A DNA stretch of 64,000 nucleotides from contig CAVRCI010000015.1 in the NCBI GenBank assembly GCA_963719495.1, positions 96,001 to 160,000 of the forward strand, given 5' to 3'. A program made the translations under genes and the position numbers. Position 1 is the first letter of the stretch. Every line of letters begins with the position of its first letter. Below, piece after piece: positions 12,583-63,903 of this stretch. The DNA comes from an uncultured Verrucomicrobiae bacterium. GTDB taxonomy: Bacteria; Verrucomicrobiota; Verrucomicrobiia; Chthoniobacterales; JAATET01. The notes under the pieces are model-generated. The model was given only the letters and a program-made list of their open reading frames with translations. It was not told the origin of the DNA and did no database searches.

Positions 12583-14037
12583 ATGGCCGAAACCACCGCC
12601 GACACCTTCCACCCCGATCACGAGAGGCAGATCACCCGCCAGCCGCTGGTTCTCAACCAGCGCACCATGGGCTGGATCAGCAACTACATCTCTTCGATCA
12701 TCGAGGATAAGACCCCGAAGTGGTGGTATATCTCGATGGCCGTGACCGTGCCCGTGATGCTCATGTGCTTCGCGATGCTGGCCTACCTCATCGCCACCGG
12801 CGTCGGCGTTTGGGGCAACAACCATCCGGTCGGCTGGGCGTGGGACATCACGAACTTCGTGTTCTGGATCGGTATCGGCCACGCCGGAACGCTCATCTCT
12901 GCGATTTTGTTCCTCACCCGCCAGAAGTGGCGGACCTCCATCAACCGGGCGGCGGAAGCGATGACGCTCTTCGCCGTCGTTTGCGCCGGCCTCTACCCGG
13001 CGCTGCACGTCGGTCGCGTCTGGATGGTGTGGTTCCTCGCCCCGGTGCCAAACGCGAACGCCATCTGGCAGAATTTCCGGAGTCCCCTCCTCTGGGACGT
13101 CTTCGCGGTCTCGACCTACTTCACCGTCTCGATTCTCTTCTGGTACACCGGTCTCATCCCCGATCTCGCGACCATCCGCGACCGCTGCACGACGAAGATC
13201 AAGCGCTTCATCTACGGCTTTCTGGCACTCGGCTGGCGCGGCGGCAACCGCCAATGGCGTCACTACGAGATGGCCTACCTCGTCCTCGCCGGCATCTCCA
13301 CGCCACTCGTGCTCTCGGTGCATTCCGTCGTCTCGTTCGATTTCGCGACGTCGATCGTCCCCGGCTGGCACACCACCATCTTCCCGCCATACTTCGTCGC
13401 GGGAGCCATTTTCGGTGGCTTCGCCATGGTGCTCACGCTCATGATCCCCGCCGCGCAGATCTGGCCGGCCCTCAAAGACATGATCACCCCGGGTCACATC
13501 GACAAGATGTGCAAGATCATCCTGCTGACCGGTTCGATCGTCGGCTACGCCTACCTGATGGAGCTCTTCATCGCCTGGTACGGAGCGAATCCCTACGAGC
13601 GCGCGGCGTTCTGGTATCGGGCGACCGGTGACGGAGCCTGGTATTTCTACGCCCCGATGATGTTCTGCAACGTCGTCGCACCGCAGCTCTTCTGGTTCAA
13701 GTGGTTCCGGACAAACCTGATCGCGGTCTGGATCCTCGTCCAATTCCCGAACGCTGGCATGTGGTTCGAGCGATTCGTCATCATCGGAACGACCCTTCAG
13801 CACGACTTCCTGCCGAGTGCCTGGCAGCTCTTCCACCCGACCATCGTCGACATCTGCACGTTCATCGGAACGTTCGGGCTTTTCCTCACCTTGTTCCTGC
13901 TCTTCATCCGTTTCCTGCCGATGATCTGTATGTTCGAAGTCAAGGCCGTCCTGCCCGAAGCCGATCCGCACTACGACGGGGATCTGGAACAGACGCCCGG
14001 TGGAGGTCAGCCAACCGTGTCACCAACAGCCCACTAA
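12583..14037 (+). CDS. actC: Alternative complex III NrfD/PsrC-family subunit ActC
   Basis: [58 protein letters not shown]. Confidence 0.92.
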
Positions 14038-40868: not shown

Positions 40869-41792
40869 CTAGCTGACGCAGCGGAAGCTGAGGTGGCCGG
40901 CGGAGGTGTCGGGTGTGTTGGACGTGCGGGCGGAGCAGCGGTAGCGGTTGCAGTAGCTGGCGTGGCAGAGGTAGCTGCCGCCGCGCATGGCTCGGCGGTC
41001 TTCGTGGGGCGGGTTGTGGAAATGGTCGGCGGTCCATTCCCAGGTGTTGCCGGTGACGTTGTGGAGGCCGTAGCCGTTGGGTTTGAACGAGCGGGCGGGG
41101 GCGGTGCCGCGGTAGCCGTCCTCGCCGGTGTCGGTCTTCGGGAACTCGCCCTGCCAGATGTTGCAGCGGTGTTTGCCGCCGGGGTGAAGGTCGTCGCCCC
41201 ACGGGTAAAGCTGCTGCTCGAGGCCGCCGCGGGCGGCGTATTCCCACTCGATCTCGGTCGGGAGGCGCTTGCCGGACCAGGCGGCGAAGGCCGTGGCATC
41301 GTTCCAAGTGACGTGGACGACGGGATGGTCGAGGCGCTGGAGGCGCTCGACGTCGTCGTTGCCGCCGAGGGGGGTGCGCCAGAACGCGCCGGGAACGCCA
41401 AACCACCATTCGAGTCCGGCGACGCGGCGGTCGGCGAGTTTTTTTCGCTGCGACTTGGGGATCTGACTGTGGTGAACGAAGGACCAACCGAAGCGCTCGG
41501 TCTCGGTGACGAAGCCGGTGGCGTCGACGAAGGTGGCGAAGGCGCGGTTGGTGACGGCGGTCTCGTCGATCCAGAAGGGGGCGACTTCGACGGGGCGGAC
41601 GGGGCCTTCGCGGTCGGCGGGCCAGGTTTCGGGGCCTTCGGCTCCCATGAGGAAGGAGGCGGCGGGGAGGGGCCGCATGGCGGCATGATTGGTGATTGGT
41701 GATTGGTGATTGGTGGGTGAGGCCGGCGGGGGTTGGTTGGGGGATTCGGTCGCAGGTGGGCGGGTGGGGGTGCAGCAGGTGGGGGTGGTCAT
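40869..41792 (-). CDS. Formylglycine-generating enzyme (SUMF1-type)
   Basis: HPVVHVTWNDA, RLPTEIEWEYAARGG, catalytic RGGSYLCHASYCNRYR; start 41792 or 41678. Confidence 0.9.
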   Translation of the reverse strand: MTTPTCCTPTRPPATESPNQPPPASPTNHQSPITNHAAMRPLPAASFLMGAEGPETWPADREGPVRPVEVAPFWIDETAVTNRAFATFVDATGFVTETERFGWSFVHHSQIPKSQRKKLADRRVAGLEWWFGVPGAFWRTPLGGNDDVERLQRLDHPVVHVTWNDATAFAAWSGKRLPTEIEWEYAARGGLEQQLYPWGDDLHPGGKHRCNIWQGEFPKTDTGEDGYRGTAPARSFKPNGYGLHNVTGNTWEWTADHFHNPPHEDRRAMRGGSYLCHASYCNRYRCSARTSNTPDTSAGHLSFRCVS

Positions 41793-44622: not shown

Positions 44623-45744
44623 TCAGTCGGCGAGGTCGGCGTTTGTCCGGGCGTGGATGTCGCGGGTGACTTCGTGGAAATCGATGGTCTTGTCGTAGAT
44701 GTCGACCTGGCGATCCGCGCCGGTGCCGCGTCCCTTGCGGATGAAATCGTGGACGTATTCGACGTGTTCGCGGGAGCCGAGTCCGTCGACGACGTCGTCG
44801 ATGTAGGCGAACATTCGCTCGATGAGGTCGACCGTTTTCACCTCTTCGAGAGTCTCGAGATCGATCATCGTGCCGTGGACGCCGTCGATGGAGGCTCGCC
44901 AGCGATTTTCTTCGCCGTAGGCGCGGCGGCGCGGCGGCGAGATGGGGTGTCCGGCTTTGATGTCGCGGTCGAGAGTGGCGACGAGGGCTTGGATGACGGC
45001 GGCCAGCCCGATGGTGTCGCGCCAGTGGGTCTGCGCGTCGCAGATGCGGAATTCGATCGTGGGGAAAAACGGATGAATCCGGATGTCCCAGTAGGTGTTC
45101 TTGGCGTCGGCGATGCTGCCGACGCGGACGAGGGTTTCGATGAAGTCGTTGTATTCCTCAAGGGTATCGAAGTGGTGCGGCAGGCCGGTGCGGGGGATTT
45201 GGAGAAATAGCTCGGATCGGAAGGAGCGGAAACCGGTGTCCTGCCGGTCGTAGAACGGGGAGTTCGACGAGAGCGCGAGCAGGAGCGGGATGAATTGGTA
45301 GCACCCGTTGGCGATCTGGAGGCCGACGTGACGGTCCGGCATGGAGACGTGGACGTGGAGGCCGAAGATGACGCAGCTCCGAATGGCGTGGCGAAATTTT
45401 CGCAACATCTGGCTGTGCCGGTCGTCCTCGACGACGCCCTGTCTGCGCCAATCGGCGAAGGGGTGCGTGCCGCTGGAAGCGATGCCGAGATCCTTGCGGG
45501 CGAGCAATTCCGCGAGTTGCTTCCGCGAACTCCGTACGCTGTCCGTCGCGTCGTGGATGTTGGCGAGGACGTCGGAGGTGAGTTCGACCGTCGAGAGATT
45601 CATCTCGCGGTGGAGGTGGTCGTGGAATTCCTTGAGGCCGGTGCGGAGGAGCGGGGCGGGGACGGGTTTGAGGGCCATCGTCTTGAGGTCGACGACCGGG
45701 AATTCCTCTTCGATGCCGATGGTGTAGGGGTTGGGTTCGCTCAT
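44623..45744 (-). CDS. YbdK-type carboxylate-amine ligase (GCS2 family, glutamate-cysteine ligase-like)
   Basis: YTIGIEEEF, SGTHPF, IFGLHVHV, LLALSSNSPF, PRTGLP, WDIR.HPFFPTIEFRICD. Confidence 0.9.
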   Translation of the reverse strand: MSEPNPYTIGIEEEFPVVDLKTMALKPVPAPLLRTGLKEFHDHLHREMNLSTVELTSDVLANIHDATDSVRSSRKQLAELLARKDLGIASSGTHPFADWRRQGVVEDDRHSQMLRKFRHAIRSCVIFGLHVHVSMPDRHVGLQIANGCYQFIPLLLALSSNSPFYDRQDTGFRSFRSELFLQIPRTGLPHHFDTLEEYNDFIETLVRVGSIADAKNTYWDIRIHPFFPTIEFRICDAQTHWRDTIGLAAVIQALVATLDRDIKAGHPISPPRRRAYGEENRWRASIDGVHGTMIDLETLEEVKTVDLIERMFAYIDDVVDGLGSREHVEYVHDFIRKGRGTGADRQVDIYDKTIDFHEVTRDIHARTNADLAD

Positions 45745-52319: not shown

Positions 52320-52679
52320 TTAAAATTCGGTGAAGACGCGTTTGGCGACGGCCATGGCGTTGTAGGCGGCGGGGTAGCCGATGTAGATGGTCATTTGGAT
52401 GATGAGCTGCTCGATCTCTTCCTTGGTGAGGAGGTTGCTGGCGAGCGCTCCGCGGGTGTGCCACTCGAATTGCGGGAGACTCGCCGACGTGACGAGGGAG
52501 GCGAGGGTGATGAGCTTGCGGGACTTTTGGTCCAGCGCCTCGTTCGTATACATGTCGGCGAATCCGTGTTCGATGACGTGTTGGGTGAGCTGGGGTGACG
52601 CGGCCATGGCGGCGTCGACGCCGCCGGGGCCGAGGTGGAGGTCGGCGAGGGGTTTGCCTTTTTGGAATTGGTCGGTCAT
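52320..52679 (-). CDS. Carboxymuconolactone decarboxylase (CMD/AhpD-fold) family protein
   Basis: LDQKSRKLITLA, HTRGAL, EEIEQL..IYIGYPAA; no CxxC. Confidence 0.8.
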   Translation of the reverse strand: MTDQFQKGKPLADLHLGPGGVDAAMAASPQLTQHVIEHGFADMYTNEALDQKSRKLITLASLVTSASLPQFEWHTRGALASNLLTKEEIEQLIIQMTIYIGYPAAYNAMAVAKRVFTEF

Positions 52680-52691
52680 GGAGTGAAGTGA

Positions 52692-52789
52692 TTTTTGAAC
52701 AGAAGGTCGCAAAGGTCGCAAAGAAGGGAAGGATTCAATTCAGCTCCTTCTTTGTATTCTTTGCGCTCTTTGCGTTCTTCTGTTCAAAA
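52692..52789. repeat. Inverted-repeat element (TTTTGAACAGAAG..CGCAAAG / CTTTGCG..CTTCTGTTCAAAA)
   Basis: Self-complementary ends; half copy at about 54136-54168. Confidence 0.65.
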
Positions 52790-52792
52790 ATC

Positions 52793-54130
52793 CTAGAACA
52801 AACGGGCGTAGCGGTTGGTTTCCCATTGGCTGACGGTTTGGTGGTATTCGCGCCATTCTTCGCTTTTGTAGGTGATGAATTCTTTTCGGAGGTCGGGGCC
52901 GAGCACTTCCTCGACCCAGGGGTCGGCGGCGAAGGCTTTGACGGCTTCGTCGAGGGTGCGGGGGAGTTCGGCGATGCTCCGGGCCGCTAGATCCGATTCG
53001 CTCAATTCGTAGAGGTTGTCTTCCTGGGCGGGGCCGGGGTCGAGGTTTTCGCGGATGCCTTGGAGTCCGGCGGCGAGGGCGAGGGTGGCCGCTAGGTAGG
53101 GATTGCAGGACGTGTCGGCGTTGCGGGACTCGCAGCGGCCACCGCCTTTGGGAATGCGCACGGAATTCGTGCGGTTGTTGCGACCGAAGCTGTTGAAGAC
53201 GGGGGCCCAGGAGTAGTAGGACATGAGGCCGCGGCGGACGAGGCGCTTGTAGCTGTTGACCGTGGGGGCAAAGGTCGCGCAGAGGGCGGGGCCGTGCTTG
53301 AGAATGCCGGCGATGAATTGGTAGCCGAGTTCGCTGAGGCCGAGGCCGCGGGGGTCGTCGGCGGGGTCGCACTCGAAGAGATTCGCGCCGGTGGACGGGT
53401 CGAAGAGCGACATGTTGAAGTGCGCGCCGGAGCCGGTTTTGTCGGCGAAGGGCTTGGGCATGAAGGTCGCGAGGAGGCCTTCTTCGGCGGCGTAGTGCTT
53501 GGCCATGAGGCGGAAGAACGTGAAGCGGTCACAGGTGGTGAGCGCGTCGGCGTAGCGGAAGTCGAACTCGAACTGCGAGTTGGCGTCCTCGTGGTCGAAG
53601 GAGTAGAGCTCCCAGCCGAGGGAGTCGATGGCGGTGGCCATTTTGTCGAGCCACTGGTAGCGGTCGAGGAAGCGTTTGAGGTCGTAGCAGCTCTTCTCGA
53701 GGTTGTCGTCGGGGTTTGGGATCGCGAGGGTGCCGTCGGCGTTCTGGCGGACGACGAAGAGTTCGCATTCGATGCCGAGGTTGAAGCCGAAACCCATTTC
53801 GGCGGCGGCGGCGACTTGCTTCTTGAGCGCGACGCGGGTGGAGATTTCGTAGGGCTGGCCGTGGAAGTGGTTGTCGGCGGGGAACCACGCGACCTCGGGG
53901 TTCCACGGGAGTTGGATCATGCGCTCGAGGTCGGGGACGGAGCTGATCTCGTCGTCGTTGGGCGATTGGCCAAGGCCGTCGAGGGCGTAGCCGGTGTAGA
54001 GTTCGCTGCCGTGCGCGAAGTGGTCTAAGTGCGAGACGGGGACGACTTTTCCCTTCGGGACGCCGTGGATGTCGGGGTAGGCGCCGATGCAGTATTTGAC
54101 GCCTAGTTGGGTGAGGTCGGATTGGGTCAT
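52793..54130 (-). CDS. GS-like glutamate-amine ligase (GlnT/GmaS-like), copy 1
   Basis: [49 protein letters not shown]. Confidence 0.88.
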
Positions 54131-54204
54131 GGTGATTTTGAACAGAAGATCGCGAAGGTCGCAAAGGGGGGGAGGAATGCGGGTGAGGAGCTTTAATGCA
54201 GGAT

Positions 54205-55056
54205 CTATGCCGCTTTGAAGCGCTCGCGTTGGCGGTGGGCGATCCAGCGGTTGATTTGCCAGAGGTCGGCGACGGGTTTTTGCGTGAAGGGTTCGAGGTG
54301 GAGGTAGTTGTCGGGGCCGAATTCGGGGGTGAGGGTGGAATTGGCGTGACCGGCGGCTCGTTGGGCGGCCCAGATGGTGTCCCACCAGCGGTCGTGGTTC
54401 GCGAGGTTTTCGGCGTATTCGGGGGCGCGGGGGTCGGGGACCTGGGGACCCTGGTCGTAGCCGACGCGGGCGTGGACGTGGCGGCAGTTGCGGGCGCAGT
54501 GGGCGAGGAGGTCGGGGAATTCGTCGAGGATGGCGGAGCGTTCGGTGACGACGCACCAGTGGCTGAAATCGCACGTGAGCGGGAGGTCGGGGATCGCGTC
54601 GAGGAGGGCGGCGGTGGCGAGGGGGTGGAAGGTGGGGCGGCCGCGGTGGGTTTCGAAGCTGACTTCTGTGCCGTGGTCGGCGGCGATGCGGGTGGCTTCG
54701 CGGAAGAAGTGGATGCTTTCGGCGAGAGGCCAGAGGTCGCTGCCGGCCATGGCGGTGATTTTGAGGGGGGCCATCTCGAGCGCTTGCTCGAGGAGGGTGC
54801 GGAAGTCGGCGAGGTGGTCGGCGGGGGTGAGGCGGGGGGCGGGGACGTATTGGCCGGGGGTGCGAATGCCGGTGGAGATCTCGGCGATGAATTCGAGGTC
54901 GGATTCGGCGACGAGACGGGTGAGCCGTTGGCGGTCGGCTGGGGTTGCCGGTGGAGCGCCCTCGATGCCGTGGAATTTGGCATCGAGGACGTCGGTGATG
55001 GCGTCTTCGTGGGTGCCTTCGTGACCCCAGAGTTGCTTGAAGAGTTGGAGTTGCAT
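54205..55056 (-). CDS. Sugar-phosphate isomerase/epimerase-like TIM-barrel protein
   Basis: FETHRGR, DFSHW, HVHARVG, PEFGP metal-binding pattern. Confidence 0.8.
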
Positions 55057-55061
55057 CTTGA

Positions 55062-55793
55062 TTAGCGCTTCGCGTTGGGTGGGTCACCGGCTGGAAGCCG
55101 GTGCCACGTTGCGGCGATTCGGAAACCGAGATTGTCGGATTGGGTGGTGGTAGGTTGAGCGTCCCGGTTCGTGGCTCGGAGGAGGCGGGGGAGCTGGTCC
55201 CAGGCTCCGCCTCGGATGACGCGGTGGTCGGGGTCGCCGTTGGCGATCCACGCGGTGCCGTCGGTCGGGGCTCCTTCGTAGGTGCGGTGCCAGGGGTCGG
55301 CGGTCCATTCGTTGACGTTGCCGTGGAGGTCGTGGATGCCGAAGGGGTTGGTGGGGTAGGCCCCGATGGGGGTCGGATGGCCCGGGCCGACGCGGTGGCC
55401 TTGTTCGCTGTAGAGGTAGTTGGCGTCGGCGGGGGTCAGGTCGGCGCCTCGGGGGTAGGCGGTGCGCTGGCCCGCGGTGGCGGCGTATTCCCACTCGGCT
55501 TCGCTGAGGAGGCGGTAGGGTTGGGCGGTTTCGTCGCGGAGCCATTCGCAGTAGGCGGTGGCTTGGTGCCAGGAGACTCGGACGACGGGGTGGTCGGGGG
55601 CGGCGGTGGGATCGTGGGTCGCGTCGTGGGCGCGGAATTCGGCGTTGGTGATCGGGTGGACGCCGAGGTTGAAGGCGGCGATCCGGACCGGGTGGGCGGG
55701 GCGCTCGGTGGCGTTGGCGAATTTGTCGTCGGGGAGTTCGCCCATGGTGAAGGCCCCGGCGGGGATGGTGCGGGTGGCGGGGATGAGGATCAC
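55062..55793 (-). CDS. FGE-sulfatase (SUMF1/EgtB/PvdO)-fold protein lacking the FGE catalytic cysteines
   Basis: [45 protein letters not shown] overlap with the Rieske gene. Confidence 0.85.
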
Positions 55794-57115
55794 CGGCGGG
55801 GGGATTGCGCGGGGGCGGCGGGGTGCTGGATGGTCGGCCAGGTGCCGTCGGCGCGGGCGGCGAGGTAGCGTTGAAACAGCCATAGGGGCATTTCGAGATG
55901 GCTGAGGCGTCCGGGCTTCGACGTGCGTGAATGGAGTCCGCGCTGGACGGCGGTGCAGGCTTCCATGTCCTCGAGGTGAAAATCGACGAGCATTTGTTCC
56001 TGCGCGGCGCGGCGGGTCTCGTAGTCGGGGAGGATCTTCGTTTCCGGGTGGACGAGGACGGTGGTGAGGAGGCGGCTGCGGTCGGCGGTGACGGGGTCGA
56101 TGCGATACCAGATCATGCGGTCGGGACCGGCGAAGAGCAGGAAGCTGGGGTAGCCAAGGCAGGCGCTCCATTGGTCGCGATGCTCCGGAGGGAGTGAATC
56201 GATGAGTGGGAAATTCGTCGAGAGGGCGGGTTCCCGCTCGTTGATCGCCGGGTCTTTGAGCGGGAGGTTGAGGGCGATGGAATGGGGGCGCTCGGCGGCG
56301 GTCCAGGCGCCCTTGGCGGGCATGATGGGTTGGAGCGTTTTTGCGTGAGTGCCGAGGTGGTGGTAGGGCTCCATGAAGTTCTCGACGAGGACCTTCCAGT
56401 TGAAATCGCAGTCCCACTGGCGCTCGATGACGATGTCCATATCGGCGGTGCGCCAACCGGCGATGTCGGTGTCGAGGTCGTCGTATTGGTCGGCGAGGGG
56501 CTCGGCTTTTCCGTCGAGGTTGACGAAGAGGAAGCCGTTCCAGATTTCGGTGCTGAAAGAGGTGAGCGGATGGTCTTCGCGGTGGAAGTCGGTGGCCTGG
56601 TGCATCTCGGGGCAACCTTTGAGGCTGCCGTCGAGGTCGAAGCTCCAGTGGTGGTAGGGGCAGAGGAAGAGGCGGGTGTGGCCGTGATCGGGGGTCACGG
56701 TGCCGCGGGGCTCGGCGGGGCCGTGGTCGGGTTCGGCGAAGCTGGCGGGCATGATGTCCATGTTGCGGTGGGGGCAGACGCGGGAAAGGACGCGGTGCTG
56801 GCCGTCCTTGCCGTGGACGGCAATGAGGGGTTCGCCGAGGAGGTCGAGTTTGAGAAAGTCGCCGGGGGCGGGGATTTGCGAGAGGTGGCAGACGCCGAGC
56901 CACTCGGGGCGAAGGACGTTCTCGGTTTCCCACGTCAGGAAATCAGGGTCGGTGTAGACGGCGGGTGGGAGGGTGGTGGCTTGGTCGAGGGGGAGGTGGG
57001 CGGTTTGGCGGACTTTTTCCAGGAGGGTGGCGAGGTGGGGAGTGACGGCTTCGCCGTTTCTGGTTGGGTCGGCGATTGCACATCGCCGCTCCTCGAGGTG
57101 GTCCGGTGTGGTCAT
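55790..57115 (-). CDS. Rieske non-heme iron oxygenase alpha subunit (choline monooxygenase/CntA/GbcA-like group)
   Basis: CPH...CPYHHW Rieske motif; NWKVLVENFMEPYHH..H; EDMEAC..VQRGL. Confidence 0.9.
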   Translation of the reverse strand: MTTPDHLEERRCAIADPTRNGEAVTPHLATLLEKVRQTAHLPLDQATTLPPAVYTDPDFLTWETENVLRPEWLGVCHLSQIPAPGDFLKLDLLGEPLIAVHGKDGQHRVLSRVCPHRNMDIMPASFAEPDHGPAEPRGTVTPDHGHTRLFLCPYHHWSFDLDGSLKGCPEMHQATDFHREDHPLTSFSTEIWNGFLFVNLDGKAEPLADQYDDLDTDIAGWRTADMDIVIERQWDCDFNWKVLVENFMEPYHHLGTHAKTLQPIMPAKGAWTAAERPHSIALNLPLKDPAINEREPALSTNFPLIDSLPPEHRDQWSACLGYPSFLLFAGPDRMIWYRIDPVTADRSRLLTTVLVHPETKILPDYETRRAAQEQMLVDFHLEDMEACTAVQRGLHSRTSKPGRLSHLEMPLWLFQRYLAARADGTWPTIQHPAAPAQSPRR

Positions 57116-57207
57116 TTTCGGTTTTGGATCGGCTCGCTTCGCATTGCCGGGTGATGCGGCGGGACGCCGCATCTCGCACGCCGGGAGGCGTGCGCTCCCC
57201 ATGCGTT

Positions 57208-58629
57208 TCAGATGAAGGTGAGGCGTTGGGCGAGGTGGGCTTCGTTGATGGCGTAGAAGCCTTCGTTCCATTCGCGCATTTTTTGCTCGAGGTAGATGTC
57301 TTTAAAGTCGCCGAAGACGGTGTCGATGAGGGTGGAGTCTTCGAAGGCTTCGAGGGCGTGGAGCTGGGTGCGGGGGAGGAGTTTGACGCCGGAGTCGCGG
57401 AGTTCGCGGTGGGTGAGGTCGTAGCAATTGGTGTTGAGGGGAGTGCCGGGATCGAGCTCGCGTTCGATGCCGTCGAGGCCCGCGGCGAGTTGGACGGCCG
57501 CCGCGAGGTAGGGGTTGCAGCCGACGTCGGGGGCGCGATTTTCGACGCAGTAGCGGTTGAGGGGGAGGCGGAGCATGGCCGAGCGGTTGTTGCGACCGTA
57601 GGCGATCATGACGGGTGCCCAACTGATGTCGGGCATGTCGCCTTGGGCGATGAGGCCTTGGTAGCTGTTGTAGCTGGGGCAGGTGACGGCGGTGATGGCG
57701 GGGGCGTGGGCGAGGAGGCCGGCGGTGAAGTGGTAGGCGAGCTGGGAGAGGGGGATGCCGGTGCGGTCGGCGATGGGGTTGGATTCCGGCTCGGGAGCGA
57801 AGAGGTTCTCGCCGGTGGTGGTGCTGGCGAGCGACATGTTGAAGTGGTTGCCGGAGCGGAAATCGTTGGAGAACGGCTTGGGCATGAAGGTCGCGGTGGC
57901 TCCGATTTCTTCGGCGACCTGTTTGGCCATCAGGCGGAGGAAGGTGAAGCGGTCGGAGATCGTGAGGGCGTCGGCGTATTGGAAGTCGAACTCGAACTGA
58001 CCGTGACCGCCCTCCTGATCGAAGGAGTAGAGATTCCAGCCGAGTTCCTCGAAGTGGCGCGACATCGGGGCGAGGAAGTCGAGGGCGTCGATGGAGAGTT
58101 TGACGTCGTAGGCCGGGCAGGTGCCCTGGTAGCGGGTCGGGGTGACGGGGCGGCGTTCGCCGGTTTCCGGGTCGACGAAGAGGACGTAGAATTCGGGTTC
58201 GAAGCCGAGGTTGAAGGTGAACCCGAGGTCGGTGGCGCGGGCGAGCTGGCGCTTGAGGATCTGGCGGCTGTCGTGCGGGTAGGGCGAGCCGTGGTAGTAG
58301 AGGTCGCCGAAGAAGTAGCCGAGCCGGGAGTCCCACGGGCATTGGATCAGGGTATCGAGGTCGGGAACGGCGGCGCATTCGTCCTCCTGCGGACCGACGA
58401 GGCCCATGCCTTCCATGGCTCCGACGGTAAAGAGCTCGGAGCCGTGCGCCATCTTTTCGAGCGCGGAGAGCGGAGTCGTTTTCGCCTTCGGGACGCCGTG
58501 GATGTCGACGTAGGTGGAGTAGAGAAACTCGACGCCGCCGTCTTCGAGGGTGGCGCGGGTGGCGGCGAGCTTGGCGGGGTCGACGGCGAAGTCGGCGGGG
58601 ACGGCGAAAGTGGGCTCGTTGGCGGACAT
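57208..58629 (-). CDS. GS-like amide ligase, copy 2 (divergent)
   Basis: DIHGVPKAK, GFEPEF, QEGGHGQFE, FMPKPF, HFNMS, NNRS, ENRAPD. Confidence 0.85.
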   Translation of the reverse strand: MSANEPTFAVPADFAVDPAKLAATRATLEDGGVEFLYSTYVDIHGVPKAKTTPLSALEKMAHGSELFTVGAMEGMGLVGPQEDECAAVPDLDTLIQCPWDSRLGYFFGDLYYHGSPYPHDSRQILKRQLARATDLGFTFNLGFEPEFYVLFVDPETGERRPVTPTRYQGTCPAYDVKLSIDALDFLAPMSRHFEELGWNLYSFDQEGGHGQFEFDFQYADALTISDRFTFLRLMAKQVAEEIGATATFMPKPFSNDFRSGNHFNMSLASTTTGENLFAPEPESNPIADRTGIPLSQLAYHFTAGLLAHAPAITAVTCPSYNSYQGLIAQGDMPDISWAPVMIAYGRNNRSAMLRLPLNRYCVENRAPDVGCNPYLAAAVQLAAGLDGIERELDPGTPLNTNCYDLTHRELRDSGVKLLPRTQLHALEAFEDSTLIDTVFGDFKDIYLEQKMREWNEGFYAINEAHLAQRLTFI

Positions 58630-58727
58630 CTTGGGGAGACGATGCGCGCCGGGGTTGGGGAGGGGAATAGGAAGAACGGGCTACTTCGATTTATGATTTA
58701 CGATTGGTGATTTATGATTGGGGTGGG

Positions 58728-59435
58728 TCAGCGGAGGGCGGTGATGGCGGCGTGGCGGTTTTCGACTCCCAGCTTTTGGAAGATGTGATCGAGGTGGTTT
58801 TTGACCGTGTGGGGGCTGATGCCGAGGATGGTGGCAATTTCGTCGTTGGATTTGCCTTCGCTGAGCCAGTGGTGGACTTCGCGTTCGCGCGGGGTGAGGG
58901 CGGCGAGGACGTCCGAGGTGAGCGAGCGGACGTGGGGAATCGTGGTGAGCGCGTTGGGTGGGCGGGGGGCGGATCGGGCGAGATGGTCGATGCCGACGAC
59001 TCCGACGCAACGGCCTTCGGTGACGATGGGGGCGACCTCGCTGGTGATGCGGTGGATGGCGTTGTCGATGGGGTAGAAGTAGGGATCGACCGCGCAGAGT
59101 TCGGCGCGCTGCCGGGGCACCCAATACCAGGAGCCGAGGCGGCGTTCAGCGTATCCGGTGACGGGGTCGAGCTTGGCGTGGCCGCGAGTGCGGTGCCAGT
59201 GGGGGACGAAGCGACCGGTGGCGTCGTGGCCGGGGGCGTGGCGGTATTCCGAGTCGCGACCGTCGAGGGCCTCGGGTTCCCAGACGCTCCAGACGCCGTT
59301 GCAGTCCGCGTTGGATTCGAGGACGGAGCGCAGGATGGCGAGGTAGGTGGCGCGCTGGGTGACGCCGAGGCTGTGCAGATTTGCGAAAGTGGCGGCGAGC
59401 CGCGCGGCTGGGCGGTCGGTGTCGGTGGGTCGCAT
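58728..59435 (-). CDS. LuxR-family regulator with N-terminal Cache/PDC-like sensor domain
   Basis: C-terminal LTPREREV..GKSNDEIA.ILGISPHTVKNHL; N-terminal WEPEALDG..TGRFVPHWHR..DPYFY..PI...GVVGID. Confidence 0.8.
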   Translation of the reverse strand: MRPTDTDRPAARLAATFANLHSLGVTQRATYLAILRSVLESNADCNGVWSVWEPEALDGRDSEYRHAPGHDATGRFVPHWHRTRGHAKLDPVTGYAERRLGSWYWVPRQRAELCAVDPYFYPIDNAIHRITSEVAPIVTEGRCVGVVGIDHLARSAPRPPNALTTIPHVRSLTSDVLAALTPREREVHHWLSEGKSNDEIATILGISPHTVKNHLDHIFQKLGVENRHAAITALR

Positions 59436-59501
59436 GCGTGGTTGTCGGAAGGTTTTTAGCGGGAGGCGGCGGGGTGGGTGGCGTGGGGGGAGAGTGGAAG
59501 T

Positions 59502-59574
59502 CAGAGATTGCCTTTTTGGTTGCTTGAAGAAATGAAAGGCGGTCGATGGCTCTTCACTGCGTTCAGAATGACAG
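59502..59574 (+). repeat. Family-A REP-containing 73-bp element
   Basis: Nearly identical to 33450-33522. Confidence 0.8.
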
Positions 59575-59592
59575 GGGAGGTATTTCGATTTC

Positions 59593-60339
59593 TTAGGCGA
59601 GGGGTGGGTTTTCGATTTTGGCTCTTTCGAAGAGGTCGGCGAGGGCGTTTGCGATTTGGTCGAAGAGGATGGCGCCGGCTTCGGCGGTTGCGCGGCTGGG
59701 GAAGCCGGTGACGCCGTTCCGGCTGGTTTGGCTGACGGGATAGGAAAATACGGTGTCGGCGGTGCGGTCGGGGTCGTCGGCTTCGGTGAGGCGGTCGGTG
59801 TGGACGAACTCGGGGCTGAGGTGGAGGAGGAGGTCGGTCTCGGCTTTGTTCGCGTGGAGGTCGGCGGCGTCGGCGGTGTAGGCCGCCCAGATTTCGGGCG
59901 TGAGGTTGAAGACGTTGTGGGTGGCGACCTGGAGTTTGCCGAGGTGGGTGGTGCGGATCGCGTCGACGGCGACGCGGAGGGCGGCGTCGTTGCCGAAGTG
60001 GGAATTAATGAACAGGAGCCGCGTCCAGCCAGTGGCTACGGCCCAATCGGCGAGCTCGCGGACGGTTGCTATGAATGTCGCGTGGGTGAGCGAAAAAGTC
60101 CCGGGCCATTTGGCGGTGTGGCCTTGGGAAACAGTGTAGGCGAGGGCGGGGGCGACGGGGACGGCGAAGGTGGCGAGATCGGCGGCGGCGTGGCAGGCGG
60201 CTTCGACGATGCGACTGTCGGTGTCGATGGGGAGGTGGGGGCCGTGCTGCTCGGTGGCTCCGACCGGGACGACGAGGAGGCCGTTCGATTCCCTCTGCGC
60301 GGCGGGGATGTCGGGCCAGGCTTGGTGGGCTAGATGCAT
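59593..60339 (-). CDS. Creatininase-family amidohydrolase
   Basis: PVGATEQHGPHLP..TD, INSHFGN, DLHANKAET, NGVTG.PS.AT. Confidence 0.9.
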   Translation of the reverse strand: MHLAHQAWPDIPAAQRESNGLLVVPVGATEQHGPHLPIDTDSRIVEAACHAAADLATFAVPVAPALAYTVSQGHTAKWPGTFSLTHATFIATVRELADWAVATGWTRLLFINSHFGNDAALRVAVDAIRTTHLGKLQVATHNVFNLTPEIWAAYTADAADLHANKAETDLLLHLSPEFVHTDRLTEADDPDRTADTVFSYPVSQTSRNGVTGFPSRATAEAGAILFDQIANALADLFERAKIENPPLA

Positions 60340-60375
60340 TCTATTTATGATTTATCATTTACGATTGATGATTTT

Positions 60376-61269
60376 TTATTCGACGTCGTCGCCGGCGGCG
60401 ACGAGGCGGATGTTGGGGAGGGGTTGATCTTCGGTGTGGGGGTGGATGAGATGTTCGAGGCGGCGTTTGGTGGCTAGGTGGGGTCCCGATAAGAATTGCT
60501 CGGGATCGCGGGGGCGGGGGACGGGATTTTCGACGATCTCGAGGATGCGGGACGGATTGGCTCCGAGCACGAGGATGCGGTCGGAGAGGTGGACGGCTTC
60601 GTCGAGGTCGTGGGTGATGAAGAGGATGGTGACGTTCACGCTGCGCCAGATGTGCAGGAGGTAGGCCTGCATCTGCGCGCGGGTCTGCGCGTCGAGGGCA
60701 CCGAAGGGCTCGTCCATGAGGAGGATACGGGGTTTGTTCGCGAGGGCCCGGGCGATGGCGACGCGTTGCTTCATCCCGCCGGAAAGCTCGTAGGGGTAGG
60801 CGTTCTCGAACTTCGACAGGCCGACGAGGTGAATCCATTCACGGGCTTCGGCGGCGGCGTCGAAATTCGATTTGCCGCCGACGGTCATTCCGAACATGAC
60901 GTTGCGTTTGACCGTGAGCCACGGGAAGAGCGTGTAGCCCTGGAAGACCATGCCGCGGTCGGAGCCGGGCCGGTCGACGGCCTTGCCCTTGAGCAGGACT
61001 TCGCCCGACGTCGGAAAGTCGAGTCCGGCGACGATGCGGGCGAGGGTGCTTTTGCCGCAGCCCGACGGGCCGACGATCGTGATGAATTCGCGGCGGCGGA
61101 CGGTGAGCGAGATGCGGTCGAGCGCGGTAATGGCCTTGGGGCCGGTGCCGAAGATCTTGGTAACGCTGCGGCAGTCGAGGACGACGGGGCGCTCCTGGAT
61201 TTGCGCGAACCGGGCGGCGACCTCGGGGTCGAGATCGCGGTAATCGGGGAGATCGAGGCTGCTGATCAT
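60376..61269 (-). CDS. ABC transporter ATP-binding protein (NitT/TauT type)
   Basis: [34 protein letters not shown]. Confidence 0.95.
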
Positions 61270-62303
61270 GCTTTTGCCTCCTTGAGAGCTTCCTCGGCGG
61301 CTTGATTGAGCATCAGGCGGCGGAGCAACCCGGGCTTCGTCGACTTCACCCACGGGAAGATCTGGCGACCGAGCCAATCGAGGAATCGGTCGAACGTGAA
61401 CCCGATGATGCCGATCATGATGATGGCGGCGAAGACGTTGTCGTAGATGCGGTATTTTGCCTGCTGGTTGATGAAGTAGGTGATGCCGGACGAAGCGCCG
61501 ATCAGTTCGGCGACGATGAGATAGGTCCAGGCCCAGCCGAGCAGGATGCGCATGTCGTTGTAGAGATCGACGGCGATGGCGGGGACGATGACGCGGAAGA
61601 GGAGCTGACGTCGGTTCGTTCCAAGTGTTTGCGCGGCTTCGACGAGGGCTTGATCGACCTTGCGCGTCGTGTTCGCAATGACGAGGACCTGTTGGAAAAA
61701 CGTGCCGATGACGATGATGGCAATCTTGGGGGCCTCGTAAATGCCGACGACGGCGACCGCGAGGGCACCGAAAGCGGGGGCGGGCATGTAGCGGGTGAAA
61801 TCGACGACGGGTTCGGTGAGCCGGGAAAAAATGGGAAACGTTCCGCAGAGAACGCCGAGCGGAACGCCGATGATCGAGCTGATCGTGAAGCCCCAGAAGA
61901 TGACCTGGATGCTTTGCCAGAGGCTTTCGTGCAGCCATTTTTCGCCCTTGCGGCGTGGCGGTGCGGTGAAGCTTTTGTAGAAGGATTCGACGACCTCGTG
62001 GGGCGCCGGGAGAAAAATCGGGTTGGCCGGAACGCCGTCGGCGACGGCCTGATTGGTGTCGCGCATCTTCGCGTTTTCGGCCGTGAAGACCTTGCGGTCG
62101 ACGAGCGTGCCTTCGCGGAAGTAGGAGACATCACCGGGGACGGTGATTTTCACCAGCGGATGCCAGATGAAGGGGGTGTAGCTGACGATGGACCAGACGA
62201 CGAGAGGGAGGAGAAAGGACGCCCAGAGGAGCAGGGTCTGCTGGAGCGGTGGGACTTCGCCAAATGGCACGAACCAAGGTCTTCGCGGCGAGGTCGTCGG
62301 CAT
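61266..62303 (-). CDS. ABC transporter permease (NitT/TauT type)
   Basis: [34 protein letters not shown]. Confidence 0.92.
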
Positions 62304-62370
62304 GATTTTTCCTGGGCTGCGCCGAGGAGAAACGGGGATCGAACCCGTTTCTCCAACCGAAACGAGTGTC

Positions 62371-63369
62371 CTACAACTCGTTCGTGATGGACGGATCGAT
62401 GTAGTCGGCCGTCGGCTCGGGGTCGGTGTAGACCTGATTCGCCACGTTGAACTCGTCGACGATGACGTTCGAGCCGTAGACCGAACCCATCCCCTCCGTC
62501 TCTTTCAAACGCTCCTTCGCCTCGTCCAGTTTGAGGATTTTGGTGCCCTCGATGAACTTCGCGTATTCGGCAGGTTCGAGGTTCACGCGGGACGCCATGA
62601 TCGCGATGGCGTCATCGCGGGTGGCTGGATCGTAGAGGTAGTCGACCGCTTGATACCACACCTTGGCCACTTTTTTCCAATCCTCACGATGGGCGGAAAG
62701 GCTCGATGGGCTGACGGCGAGCACGTCGTAGATGAGGCCGGGGACGTCAGCGCTGGTGTAGATCGCCTTGGAGCCGGGGACGGCTTTGAGGGCCTGGCCG
62801 GAGTTCGGCTGCCAGGCACCGATGGCGTCGACTTCGCCGGACGCGAGCACCTTGGCGGTCTCGTTGGTGGGCACGTTGACGAGCTCCACGTCGGCCTCGG
62901 TCATGCCGTTCGCTTCGAGGGCCTTGAGCAAGAGGAGGTGGACGACGTAGCCGACTTCCACACCGACTTTTTTACCCTTCAGGTCTTTGATCGACTCGAT
63001 GCCGGGCTGACCGACAATCATGTCGTTGCCGTTCGAGAAGTCATTGATGATGATCGCGCGGCTGGGCGCTCCGGTCGCGCCGGTCACGAGCGCGTCGCCG
63101 TTCGTCATCGCGACGGCGTCGAGTTGGCCGGCGGCGAAGGCCTCCATGGAGGGGACGTATTCGAACCATTCGAACTGAACGTCCACGCCTGCTTCCTTGA
63201 ACCAGTCTTTCTGGATGGCGATTTCCCACGCGACCCAGCCCGGCCAATCGGAGTAACCGATCTTCAATGGCTCGGCCGACGCTGTCCCGAGCAGAGCGAG
63301 GGAGGCGGCGGCGGTCGTGATGGCAGCGAGGCTGCGGCGACGGAAGGAGTTTAGGAGCTTCATGGTCAT
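62371..63369 (-). CDS. ABC transporter substrate-binding protein (NitT/TauT; urea-carboxylase/guanidine-associated-like)
   Basis: Signal peptide; [36 protein letters not shown]. Confidence 0.9.
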
Positions 63370-63415
63370 ATTTGGATTGGGTATTACGATGAGTGCATCG
63401 AATAATACCGGTTGG

Positions 63416-63431
63416 AGCACGTGCCGTGCCA
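63416..63431 (-). promoter_or_regulatory. Putative sigma54 (-24/-12) promoter of the ABC/GS operon
   Basis: Minus strand TGGCACG-GCAC-GTGCT, GG-N10-GC, about 47 nt upstream of the start. Confidence 0.55.
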
Positions 63432-63534: not shown

Positions 63535-63903
63535 TTATTTCTTGCTCTTCTTGGCGGCTGCTTTTTTCGCAGGGGCCTTGGCGGCCTTCTTGGGGGCAGC
63601 CTTGGCTTTCGCGGCTGGAGCCTTCTTGGCGGCTGCCTTTGGAGCTGGAGCCTTCTTGGCTGCGGCTCTCTTAGGCGCGGCTTTCTTGGCTGGTGCCTTG
63701 GCCGCCGGTGCTTTCTTCGCCGGAGCGGCCTTTTTCGCTGGAGCCGCCTTGGCGGCTGGCTTCTTGGCGGCCGGCTTTGGAGTCACCGTTTTTTTGGCGG
63801 CTGGCTTCTTGGCTGGCGCGGCCTTGGCCACTGGCGCTTTCTTGGCCGGAGCCTTTTTAGCGGCTGGTTTCTTGGCTGCTGGTTTTTTCTTAGTTGCTGG
63901 CAT
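63535..63903 (-). CDS. Histone H1-like Lys/Ala/Pro-rich DNA-binding protein
   Basis: 122 aa almost entirely PAAKK/APAKK repeats; followed by a terminator. Confidence 0.8.
   Translation of the reverse strand: MPATKKKPAAKKPAAKKAPAKKAPVAKAAPAKKPAAKKTVTPKPAAKKPAAKAAPAKKAAPAKKAPAAKAPAKKAAPKRAAAKKAPAPKAAAKKAPAAKAKAAPKKAAKAPAKKAAAKKSKK

Follow-up and report, generated by a model that had tools for sequence, protein, structure and literature searches.

A sigma54-linked operon of a Verrucomicrobiae bacterium with a probable role in releasing guanidine from larger natural molecules

Which nitrogen compound would a bacterium handle with an ABC importer, two glutamine synthetase (GS)-fold ligases, a creatininase-fold hydrolase, and a Rieske oxygenase encoded in one operon? 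The question is raised by positions 52320‒63431 of a 64,000-nt stretch of contig CAVRCI010000015.1 (hereafter the window) from an uncultured Verrucomicrobiae bacterium, for which an earlier note had proposed a pathway that glutamylates, oxidizes, and hydrolyzes an N-compound. The cluster covers the import and processing side of a guanidine-use system, and larger natural compounds are probably the source from which its apparently uncharacterized enzymes release guanidine. As the overall explanation, we favor, with a probability of roughly 55%, an operon driven by sigma54 that feeds the guanidine carboxylase regulon during nitrogen scavenging and is composed of three separable modules.

Operon layout, regulation, and guanidine links

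Eleven uninterrupted open reading frames (ORFs) run on the minus strand from 63369 to 52320 (G+C content at third codon positions, 0.80‒0.88), and their families were assigned by Pfam and NCBIfam profile scans (Table 1). The ORFs are intact and stand behind a −24/−12 element at 63431, as the earlier note described. Of the several overlaps it mentioned, two pairs are borne out with the start codons chosen here (permease/ATPase and Rieske/formylglycine-generating enzyme (FGE)-fold genes, 4 nt each), the remaining gaps being 5‒157 nt. In the regulator it called Cache-LuxR, the LuxR helix-turn-helix (HTH) stands, and the Cache part is a weak MCP-like_PDC_1 match (E 4e-4, 21.1 bits against a cut-off of 27).

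Table 1 Features of the operon in the window and of the partner operon on contig C9.
Feature	Position	Strand	Basis
sigma54-type −24/−12 promoter element	63417..63431	-	sequence; 1 of 7 tight genome matches
Palindrome GTAWTA-N16-TAWTAC, candidate operator of the NikR-like regulator	63381..63408		genome search
Substrate-binding protein (SBP), NMT1/SsuA family, GimA-like guanidinium pocket	62371..63369	-	Pfam/NCBIfam, pocket alignment
ABC permease, NitT/TauT type	61266..62303	-	Pfam/NCBIfam
ABC ATPase; overlaps permease by 4 nt	60376..61269	-	Pfam/NCBIfam
Creatininase-fold metal amidohydrolase (Crea); Gly at E122	59593..60339	-	PF02633 E 1e-59, alignments
LuxR-type HTH regulator with probable cytoplasmic Cache/PDC sensor	58728..59435	-	Pfam
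GS1, GS-fold ligase (Gln-synt_C), separate clade	57208..58629	-	TIGR03105 428.8 < 469.6
Rieske non-heme iron oxygenase (alpha subunit)	55790..57115	-	Pfam, structure match
FGE-fold protein (FGE-sulfatase), nearest PvdO; overlaps Rieske gene by 4 nt	55062..55793	-	Pfam
TIM barrel, xylose-isomerase-like, metal; candidate lyase/hydratase	54205..55056	-	AP_endonuc_2 28.8 bits, below 31.1 cut-off
GS2, GS-fold ligase (Gln-synt_C)	52793..54130	-	TIGR03105 622.5 > 469.6
Intergenic hairpin, 113 nt, carries genome-wide repeat	52680..52792		folding, genome repeat count
CMD-family protein	52320..52679	-	Pfam
C9 regulon half: sigma54-type site, palindrome, nikR-like, cgdA, cgdB, uca, allophanate hydrolase	C9:194159-201790 (L103:6140-13791)

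The host genome (4.54 Mb, 98.6% complete) contains an rpoN gene, and a loose sigma54 motif precedes 54 of 60 SBP orthologues, the window included, versus 212 of 3000 random 450-nt windows. The promoter palindrome has two perfect copies in the genome, one in the window and one before an operon on contig C9, and both start 20‒23 nt past the start of a sigma54-type element; six sites are found when one mismatch is allowed. Upstream of SBP orthologues it was detected in 22 of 59 cases versus 33 of 3000 random windows; the two genome sites themselves had contributed to the consensus. The C9 operon encodes a NikR-like regulator, CgdA, CgdB, urea/guanidine carboxylase (Uca), and allophanate hydrolase (AtzF), all above NCBIfam cut-offs. 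An Rfam scan at the gathering threshold found no guanidine riboswitch in the window or at the C9 locus.

The nickel site of NikR, His/His/His/Cys, is altered in the C9 regulator. Compared with PDB 2BJ1, this protein has the NikR fold, but three of its four ligand positions are occupied by Arg, Gln, and Arg, so that it does not match a nickel-responsive NikR at this site. The NikR-like protein presumably binds the palindromes. On plasmid NZ_CP015595.1 (L131:5435-13140), two palindrome copies lie beside sigma54-type sites, one preceding a regulator-atzF-SBP set and the other a permease-ATPase-2-oxoglutarate (2OG) oxygenase-MgdL-like-SMR set.

The palindrome in common with the guanidine carboxylase pathway and the physical linkage to this pathway in relatives, described below, point to guanidino compounds. 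The earlier view that the locus lacks a standard partner is overturned by the same two observations. As it stated, no standard partner is found in the window, as far as the 55 ORFs scanned against Pfam show (16 + 39, a subset of the window ORFs), but the urea/guanidine carboxylase pathway resides on C9. By comparison with relatives, it is very probable that the window operon belongs with nikR-like-cgdA-cgdB-uca-atzF and that its importer is of the guanidinium-binding type.

The SBP pocket residues W42, W45, D116, W186, and D215 align to W, W, D, F, and D of 25 cyanobacterial matches, so that four of five are identical to the GimA pocket and Trp replaces Phe; the alignment runs via these matches and not via Sll1080 directly, and the spacing fits the docked site of GimA. 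This guanidinium site comprises W59, W62, D135, F205, and D233, with a KD of 97 nM (PMC12704784). The SBP thus shares its family and the pattern W, W, D, aromatic, D with the GimABC importer of Synechocystis. Unlike GimABC, however, it has Trp for Phe205, is merely 33‒41% identical to the cyanobacterial GimA-type matches, and is linked to carboxylase and ligase genes instead of GdmH. At the best cyanobacterial SBP matches, an arginase-family gene is a neighbor in five of five retrieved loci.

Among 401 sampled Verrucomicrobiota genomes, 19 match GS1 at E <= 1e-60, and 18 of these hold the GS2 clade, G123 being a GmaS-like outlier. CgdA is found in all 19 (18/18 with GS2) versus 42 of the 401 overall, related genomes not being independent. 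The SBP-permease-ATPase-Crea-GS2 block is complete at 16 of 16 loci with GS2 only; cgdA, cgdB, and uca lie within 20 kb at 15 of these, and a NikR-like gene is likewise present at 15. GS2 or GS2-like genes occur in seven of 401 Pseudomonadota genomes, and four of the seven loci carry a guanidine riboswitch. In one of them (L144), a guanidine-I riboswitch stands directly above SBP (70% identical)-permease-ATPase-Crea-GS2 (70%), and another stands above cgdA.

The two GS-fold ligases and the creatininase-fold hydrolase

GS1 and GS2 share with GmaS (PDB 7CQL, 9QUR), whose residue roles (PMC7948447) served as reference, the fold, the metal ligands, D177, E186, R312, R327, and W300 (GmaS numbering). 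This conservation suggests that both ligases are likely active and that they are not true glutamine synthetases. A true glutamine synthetase (GSI) was rejected since the glutamate-flap position W300 is Trp in 121 of 121 sequences, whereas true GS has Glu there (B. subtilis E304), and TIGR00653 scores are below the cut-off. Unlike GmaS, both ligases carry Ser/Asp in place of Gln175/Asn188, in 41 of 41 GS2 and 80 of 80 GS1 rows; these counts include the window sequences, and one locus was entered twice. Gln175/Asn188 are kept in all three GmaS proteins adjoining mgs genes, so that the Ser/Asp pocket occurs in 0/3 there versus 121/121 here. The change suggests a bigger and more acidic amine pocket, a reading that we keep tentative because Asn188 also contacts ATP.

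The two ligases part at the glutamate site. GS2 retains Arg288 and an intact site, whereas Gly replaces this glutamate-binding residue in 80 of 80 GS1 sequences, in a part of the alignment that has no gaps. All 80 also carry an acidic side chain three residues ahead of W300. The loss of Arg288 makes "glutamylation" doubtful for GS1. The structure model of GS1 is uninformative on the acid donor because its predicted local distance difference test (pLDDT) score is < 50 over residues 321‒338, the loop with the Arg-to-Gly change. The nearest GS1 relatives (79‒84% identical) are Verrucomicrobiota records.

In quick trees (43 and 33 selected rows), GS1, GS2, and GmaS form three supported groups. GS2 is 42‒44% identical to mgs-linked GmaS, and its best PDB matches are GmaS structures, the NpaA1-type structure scoring far lower (8WWU, E 6e-38). 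Unlike GmaS, the window ligases have no mgsABC or mgdABCD partners. The SoxB/MgdA family was found in 0 of 19 Verrucomicrobiota genomes, two alphaproteobacterial controls (G402, G404) being positive, and the host genome contains large GltB frames only, with no glutamate synthase of MgsC size; a search for SoxD was uninformative, as the controls gave no match. These absences and the changed Gln175/Asn188 pocket led us to reject the methylamine pathway. A further GS2-like group, 49‒53% identical to GS2, with the Ser/Asp pocket and Arg288 kept, occurs at L146, L147, L148, L149, and L068; at L146, an alpha/beta hydrolase gene adjoins it.

Crea retains its metal ligands and scores 107.8 against a cut-off of 235 for TIGR04448 and 144.9 against 172 for MftE. 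Position 122 is Gly, Thr, or Pro in 81 relatives and never Glu, whereas a second creatininase cluster has Glu122 in 8 of 8 members and a representative above the TIGR04448 cut-off. We therefore rejected a true creatininase (EC 3.5.2.10), given the score below the cut-off and the lack of Glu122. The creatininase family also includes formamide hydrolases (PMC9478397).

The Rieske, FGE-fold, and TIM-barrel module

The ligands of the Rieske cluster and of the 2-His-1-carboxylate iron site (C114, H116, C152, H155, H252, H257, and D383) are invariant in 23 sequences. The closest solved relative is the carnitine monooxygenase CntA. A separate ferredoxin and reductase could serve the Rieske enzyme, and a small FAD/NAD-binding reductase encoded at C9:188374-189048 (L103:375-1049), about 5 kb upstream of the nikR-like gene, is a possible electron donor. 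For the FGE-fold protein, the best structure match is PvdO. The formylglycine-generating enzyme has a copper-binding cysteine pair near its C-terminus, whereas the 23-sequence consensus has no cysteine there. The TIM-barrel model has a pLDDT of 92, and its fold matches are xylose-isomerase-like epimerases, dehydratases, and lyases of 12‒16% identity, which does not indicate a function; it has no sequence relative in the PDB.

An operon of similar design is the mgdH/mgdL-extended carboxylase operon of Vreelandella boliviensis, in which an ABC importer, an oxygenase, and a second enzyme feed Gca-CgdAB-AtzF for nitrogen scavenging. There, MgdH hydroxylates methylguanidine, and MgdL splits the hemiaminal into guanidine and formaldehyde (PMC12508155). 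A recurrent hypothetical protein of related loci resembles MgdL, including the catalytic Asp-x-Arg, in a by-eye comparison with the same paper, and homologues of MgdL together with MgdH-like proteins hold the places of TIM and Rieske there. The TIM barrel itself was rejected as an MgdL homologue, since it shows no sequence similarity and a different fold. Unlike the V. boliviensis system, the window has a Rieske enzyme and not a 2OG/Fe oxygenase, a TIM barrel and not the MgdL beta-barrel, and additionally two GS-fold ligases, a creatininase-fold hydrolase, and an FGE-fold protein. It also has a sigma54 site with a candidate NikR-like operator instead of a riboswitch, and its pathway is spread over two contigs. 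At best, the resemblance to MgdH/MgdL demethylation is one of working principle.

In 24 hand-picked genomes, the TIM gene and the MgdL-like gene each occur in 11 with no overlap, and the Rieske orthologue (14) and the MgdH-like 2OG gene (6) do not overlap either; without the unpublished genome G956, MgdL-like is found in 10 and Rieske in 13 (n = 23). "MgdH-like" here means similar to the 2OG gene adjoining the MgdL-like gene in L143, not to MgdH proper. With the L143 homologues as queries, neither an MgdH-like nor an MgdL-like gene was found in the host genome. Planctomycetota show both states of this pattern, and all four oxygenase-lyase pairings were found. That the Rieske and TIM genes were never found with MgdH and MgdL homologues suggests oxidative guanidine release from an N-substituted guanidine.

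The TIM barrel adjoins an O2-dependent iron enzyme at 7 of 7 proteobacterial genome loci (five MgdH-like 2OG enzymes and two of the desaturase family) and in both plasmid regions examined. Judged by its gene neighbors, the product of the oxygenase is very likely its substrate. In Paraburkholderia sprentiae, a TIM gene (47% identical) and a 2OG enzyme gene lie between guanidine riboswitches. Other neighbors of TIM genes include amino-acid ABC transporters, an agmatinase, and an arginine-deiminase-family gene; these and the desaturase pairing hint at a substrate chain longer than methyl. The fatty-acid-desaturase family is a third oxygenase class paired with TIM, and at L148:4729-5745 and L164:6570-7586 its gene is flanked by the TIM orthologue on one side and by a second NMT1-type importer on the other.

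Separable modules, proposed functions, and rival readings

The 80 GS1 loci, many of which are cut by contig ends so that counts are lower bounds, contain Crea in 72, any Rieske gene (three clades) in 64, FGE in 34, TIM in 27, GS2 in 24, and carboxylase-pathway genes in 24. Among these loci, FGE (34/34) and TIM (27/27) occur solely with the Rieske clade of the window. The Rieske orthologue was found in just 3 of 18 Verrucomicrobiota GS2 genomes, indicating that GS2 and Crea work without it, whereas G005 and G249 contain Rieske-FGE-TIM and a second importer without GS1. As the modules occur apart, the operon consists of importer, Crea, and GS2; Rieske, FGE, and TIM; and GS1 with the regulator, and it is not one linear pathway. 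The neighborhood analysis of GS-like, creatininase, and TIM genes that the earlier note had called for thus revealed recurring gene groups and a linkage to guanidine genes, in separable modules. The single line from glutamylation to oxidation to hydrolysis is tenable in part only: GS2 and Crea mostly occur without Rieske, Rieske-FGE-TIM can occur without GS1, and GS1 lacks Arg288.

The LuxR-type regulator, present in 10 of 80 GS1 loci, is accessory. We rejected CMD as a core member, since it occurs at 0 of 96 related loci (another AhpD/CMD-like gene is found at 22 of 80), and it is probably a local add-on. The repeat at 52680‒52792 has seven copies in the genome, another lying before GS2 near 54165, and the copy before CMD folds into a hairpin (113 nt, −52 kcal/mol), which may terminate or stabilize the transcript.

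Where a GS1 locus lacks Rieske, MgdH-like and MgdL-like genes are present instead in several cases. At the Planctomycetota loci L076, L077, L082, and L086, an MgdL homologue and a second, Glu122-bearing creatininase adjoin GS1, and Rieske-FGE is present at three of the four (L076 is in the unpublished genome G956); these gene sets suggest a creatinine/methylguanidine link. The alphaproteobacterial loci L067, L069, L072, L073, L075, L078, L079, and L081 combine GS1 with another Rieske clade, mostly with Crea, TetR, a different NMT1 protein, and Ldh_2/AKR/2-hydroxyacid dehydrogenases; CgdA was not found in their genomes, and they possibly represent a separate pathway.

We propose that Rieske and TIM would oxidize the carbon next to the guanidino nitrogen of an N-substituted guanidine and then cleave the product into guanidine and an aldehyde. 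This job would parallel that of MgdH and MgdL on methylguanidine, with the TIM version maybe serving a longer chain. We lean slightly toward such a release, with the FGE-fold protein as an accessory. The released guanidine would then pass through Uca-CgdAB-AtzF to ammonia. For GS2 and Crea, we tentatively consider, at somewhat less than even odds, that GS2 would ligate glutamate to guanidine or a close analogue and Crea would hydrolyze the acylguanidine. The hydrolysis would be either productive, with nitrogen entering glutamine and urea passing to Uca/AtzF, or a release valve, for which AtdA2 is a precedent (PMC11335346). The chances seem evenly balanced that GS1 is an active acid-amine ligase using an acid other than glutamate, plausibly a guanidino or amino acid without the alpha-carboxylate, in cooperation with the Crea hydrolase and an oxygenase. 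The joint reading as new guanidino-nitrogen chemistry is unlikely to hold in full. It would combine a third route for guanidine itself, in which ATP-dependent formation of gamma-glutamylguanidine and its hydrolysis bring nitrogen directly into glutamine, GS1 acting on a non-glutamate acid (e.g. a guanidino acid), a TIM lyase/hydratase serving three unrelated oxygenase classes on natural alkylguanidines, and a NikR-fold sensor replacing the riboswitch.

Several observations weigh against the feeder operon of the guanidine carboxylase regulon. Three of the five SBP pocket residues are common in other NMT1 proteins (31/32), the palindrome consensus is partly self-derived, as mentioned above, and L150 and L151, where Rieske-FGE-TIM stands alone, gave no match to the palindrome or to a sigma54 site. 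A CntB-type reductase frame combining Fer2 and NAD-binding domains was not found in the host genome. Many of the 24 hand-picked genomes are incomplete metagenome-assembled genomes, and the exclusion pattern largely tracks phylum. Proteobacterial TIM-2OG pairs are mostly beside amino-acid ABC transporters, and a guanidine riboswitch occurs at 0 of 6 proteobacterial genome TIM loci and in 1 of 3 plasmid regions. MgdH and MgdL of V. boliviensis work without a ligase or creatininase (PMC12508155). A search of 34 further genomes found CgdA in 22 and missed it in all eight alphaproteobacterial ones with GS1 and another Rieske clade, two of four tested among the latter having a GdmH-like gene; GS1 thus need not serve guanidine release everywhere.

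These eight genomes, which hold the GS1-Crea-Rieske trio with CgdA not found, speak for an alternative that we consider improbable: GS1 acylates an unrelated amine, Rieske oxidizes the adduct, and Crea deacylates it, the guanidine link reflecting shared nitrogen control. A clustered GS-like ligase that works with a hydrolase and a Rieske enzyme has an established precedent in the aniline and 1-naphthylamine systems (AtdA1-A5/NpaA1-A5; PMC11335346), and the frequencies of Crea and of the three Rieske clades among the 80 GS1 loci are consistent with it. On the other hand, GS1 lacks Arg288 throughout, Rieske-FGE-TIM occurs without GS1 in two genomes, and MgdH-like and MgdL-like genes replace Rieske at several GS1 loci; moreover, a dedicated palindrome, beyond sigma54 alone, is common to the carboxylase operon. 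An aniline dioxygenase-type system proper was rejected because of the lost Arg288 and because none of the eleven operon genes encodes an aniline-type GAT-like hydrolase, a Rieske beta subunit, or a reductase. Unlike in AtdA/NpaA, the hydrolase is creatininase-fold and not GAT-like, and the Rieske enzyme is nearer to CntA.

The separability of the modules would also suit co-regulated genes of unrelated function, an alternative of still lower probability. Crea would free guanidine or ammonia from acylguanidines, formamides, or amidines of the environment (ArfB/BrbF-type), GS2 would fix the ammonia, and the oxygenase substrate would be non-guanidino. The formamide hydrolases of the creatininase family (PMC9478397) are in line with it, and RhGmaS has been described to take ammonium, at a much higher Km. 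However, at the flap GS2 has the Trp of GmaS where a true GS has Glu, the altered pocket residues do not vary (41/41), and a hydrolase gene persistently accompanies it, creatininase-fold in general and alpha/beta in L146. Least probable is a methylamine route in which GS2 as a GmaS traps methylamine (e.g. from methylguanidine or creatinine) and Rieske demethylates gamma-glutamylmethylamide to glutamine and formaldehyde: the TIGR03105 score, GmaS as best PDB match, the kept D177, E186, R312, and W300, and the relation to C‒N-cleaving CntA speak for it, but GS2 forms a separate, well-supported group at 42‒44% identity to mgs-linked GmaS, SoxB/MgdA and an MgsC-sized glutamate synthase were not found in the genomes searched, and most GS2 genomes lack Rieske, leaving a dead end.

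Elsewhere in the window, a Lys/Ala/Pro-rich histone H1-like protein (HC2 family, below the cut-off) is encoded at 63535‒63903, just upstream of the operon, and is followed by strong hairpins. A run of genes sharing one strand at 44623‒49743 encodes a GCS2-family ligase, an MFS transporter, an O-methyltransferase, and a flavin amine oxidase, and genes for an amino acid permease and for another FGE-family protein lie at 40869‒43865. At 14001‒22000, the G+C content falls to 0.52‒0.56 versus about 0.63, and a PEP-CTERM protein, pilin-type N-methylation proteins, and a 981-residue ORF without a Pfam match are encoded.

The view of the locus as an undescribed nitrogen-utilization enzyme set, distinct from the methylamine, putrescine, isopropylamine, and aniline pathways, is upheld. 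Our literature search found no description of this gene set, which may be listed in the gene-association tables of subscription papers. According to reviews, guanidine is degraded by two routes, and the origin of free guanidine is unsettled (PMC12186494, PMC12623156); this origin and the guanidino compounds on which bacteria live are named as open questions in the literature (PMC12623156, PMC12186494, PMC12508155). The operon yields a few soluble proteins for which definite predictions can be made, namely the SBP (for ligand screening), two pocket-altered ligases, and a lyase candidate for three oxygenase types. If a GS-fold enzyme here uses a non-glutamate acyl donor or acylates guanidine, it would widen the known chemistry of the GS family, and TIM-dependent release, if true, would give free guanidine in the environment an enzymatic origin.

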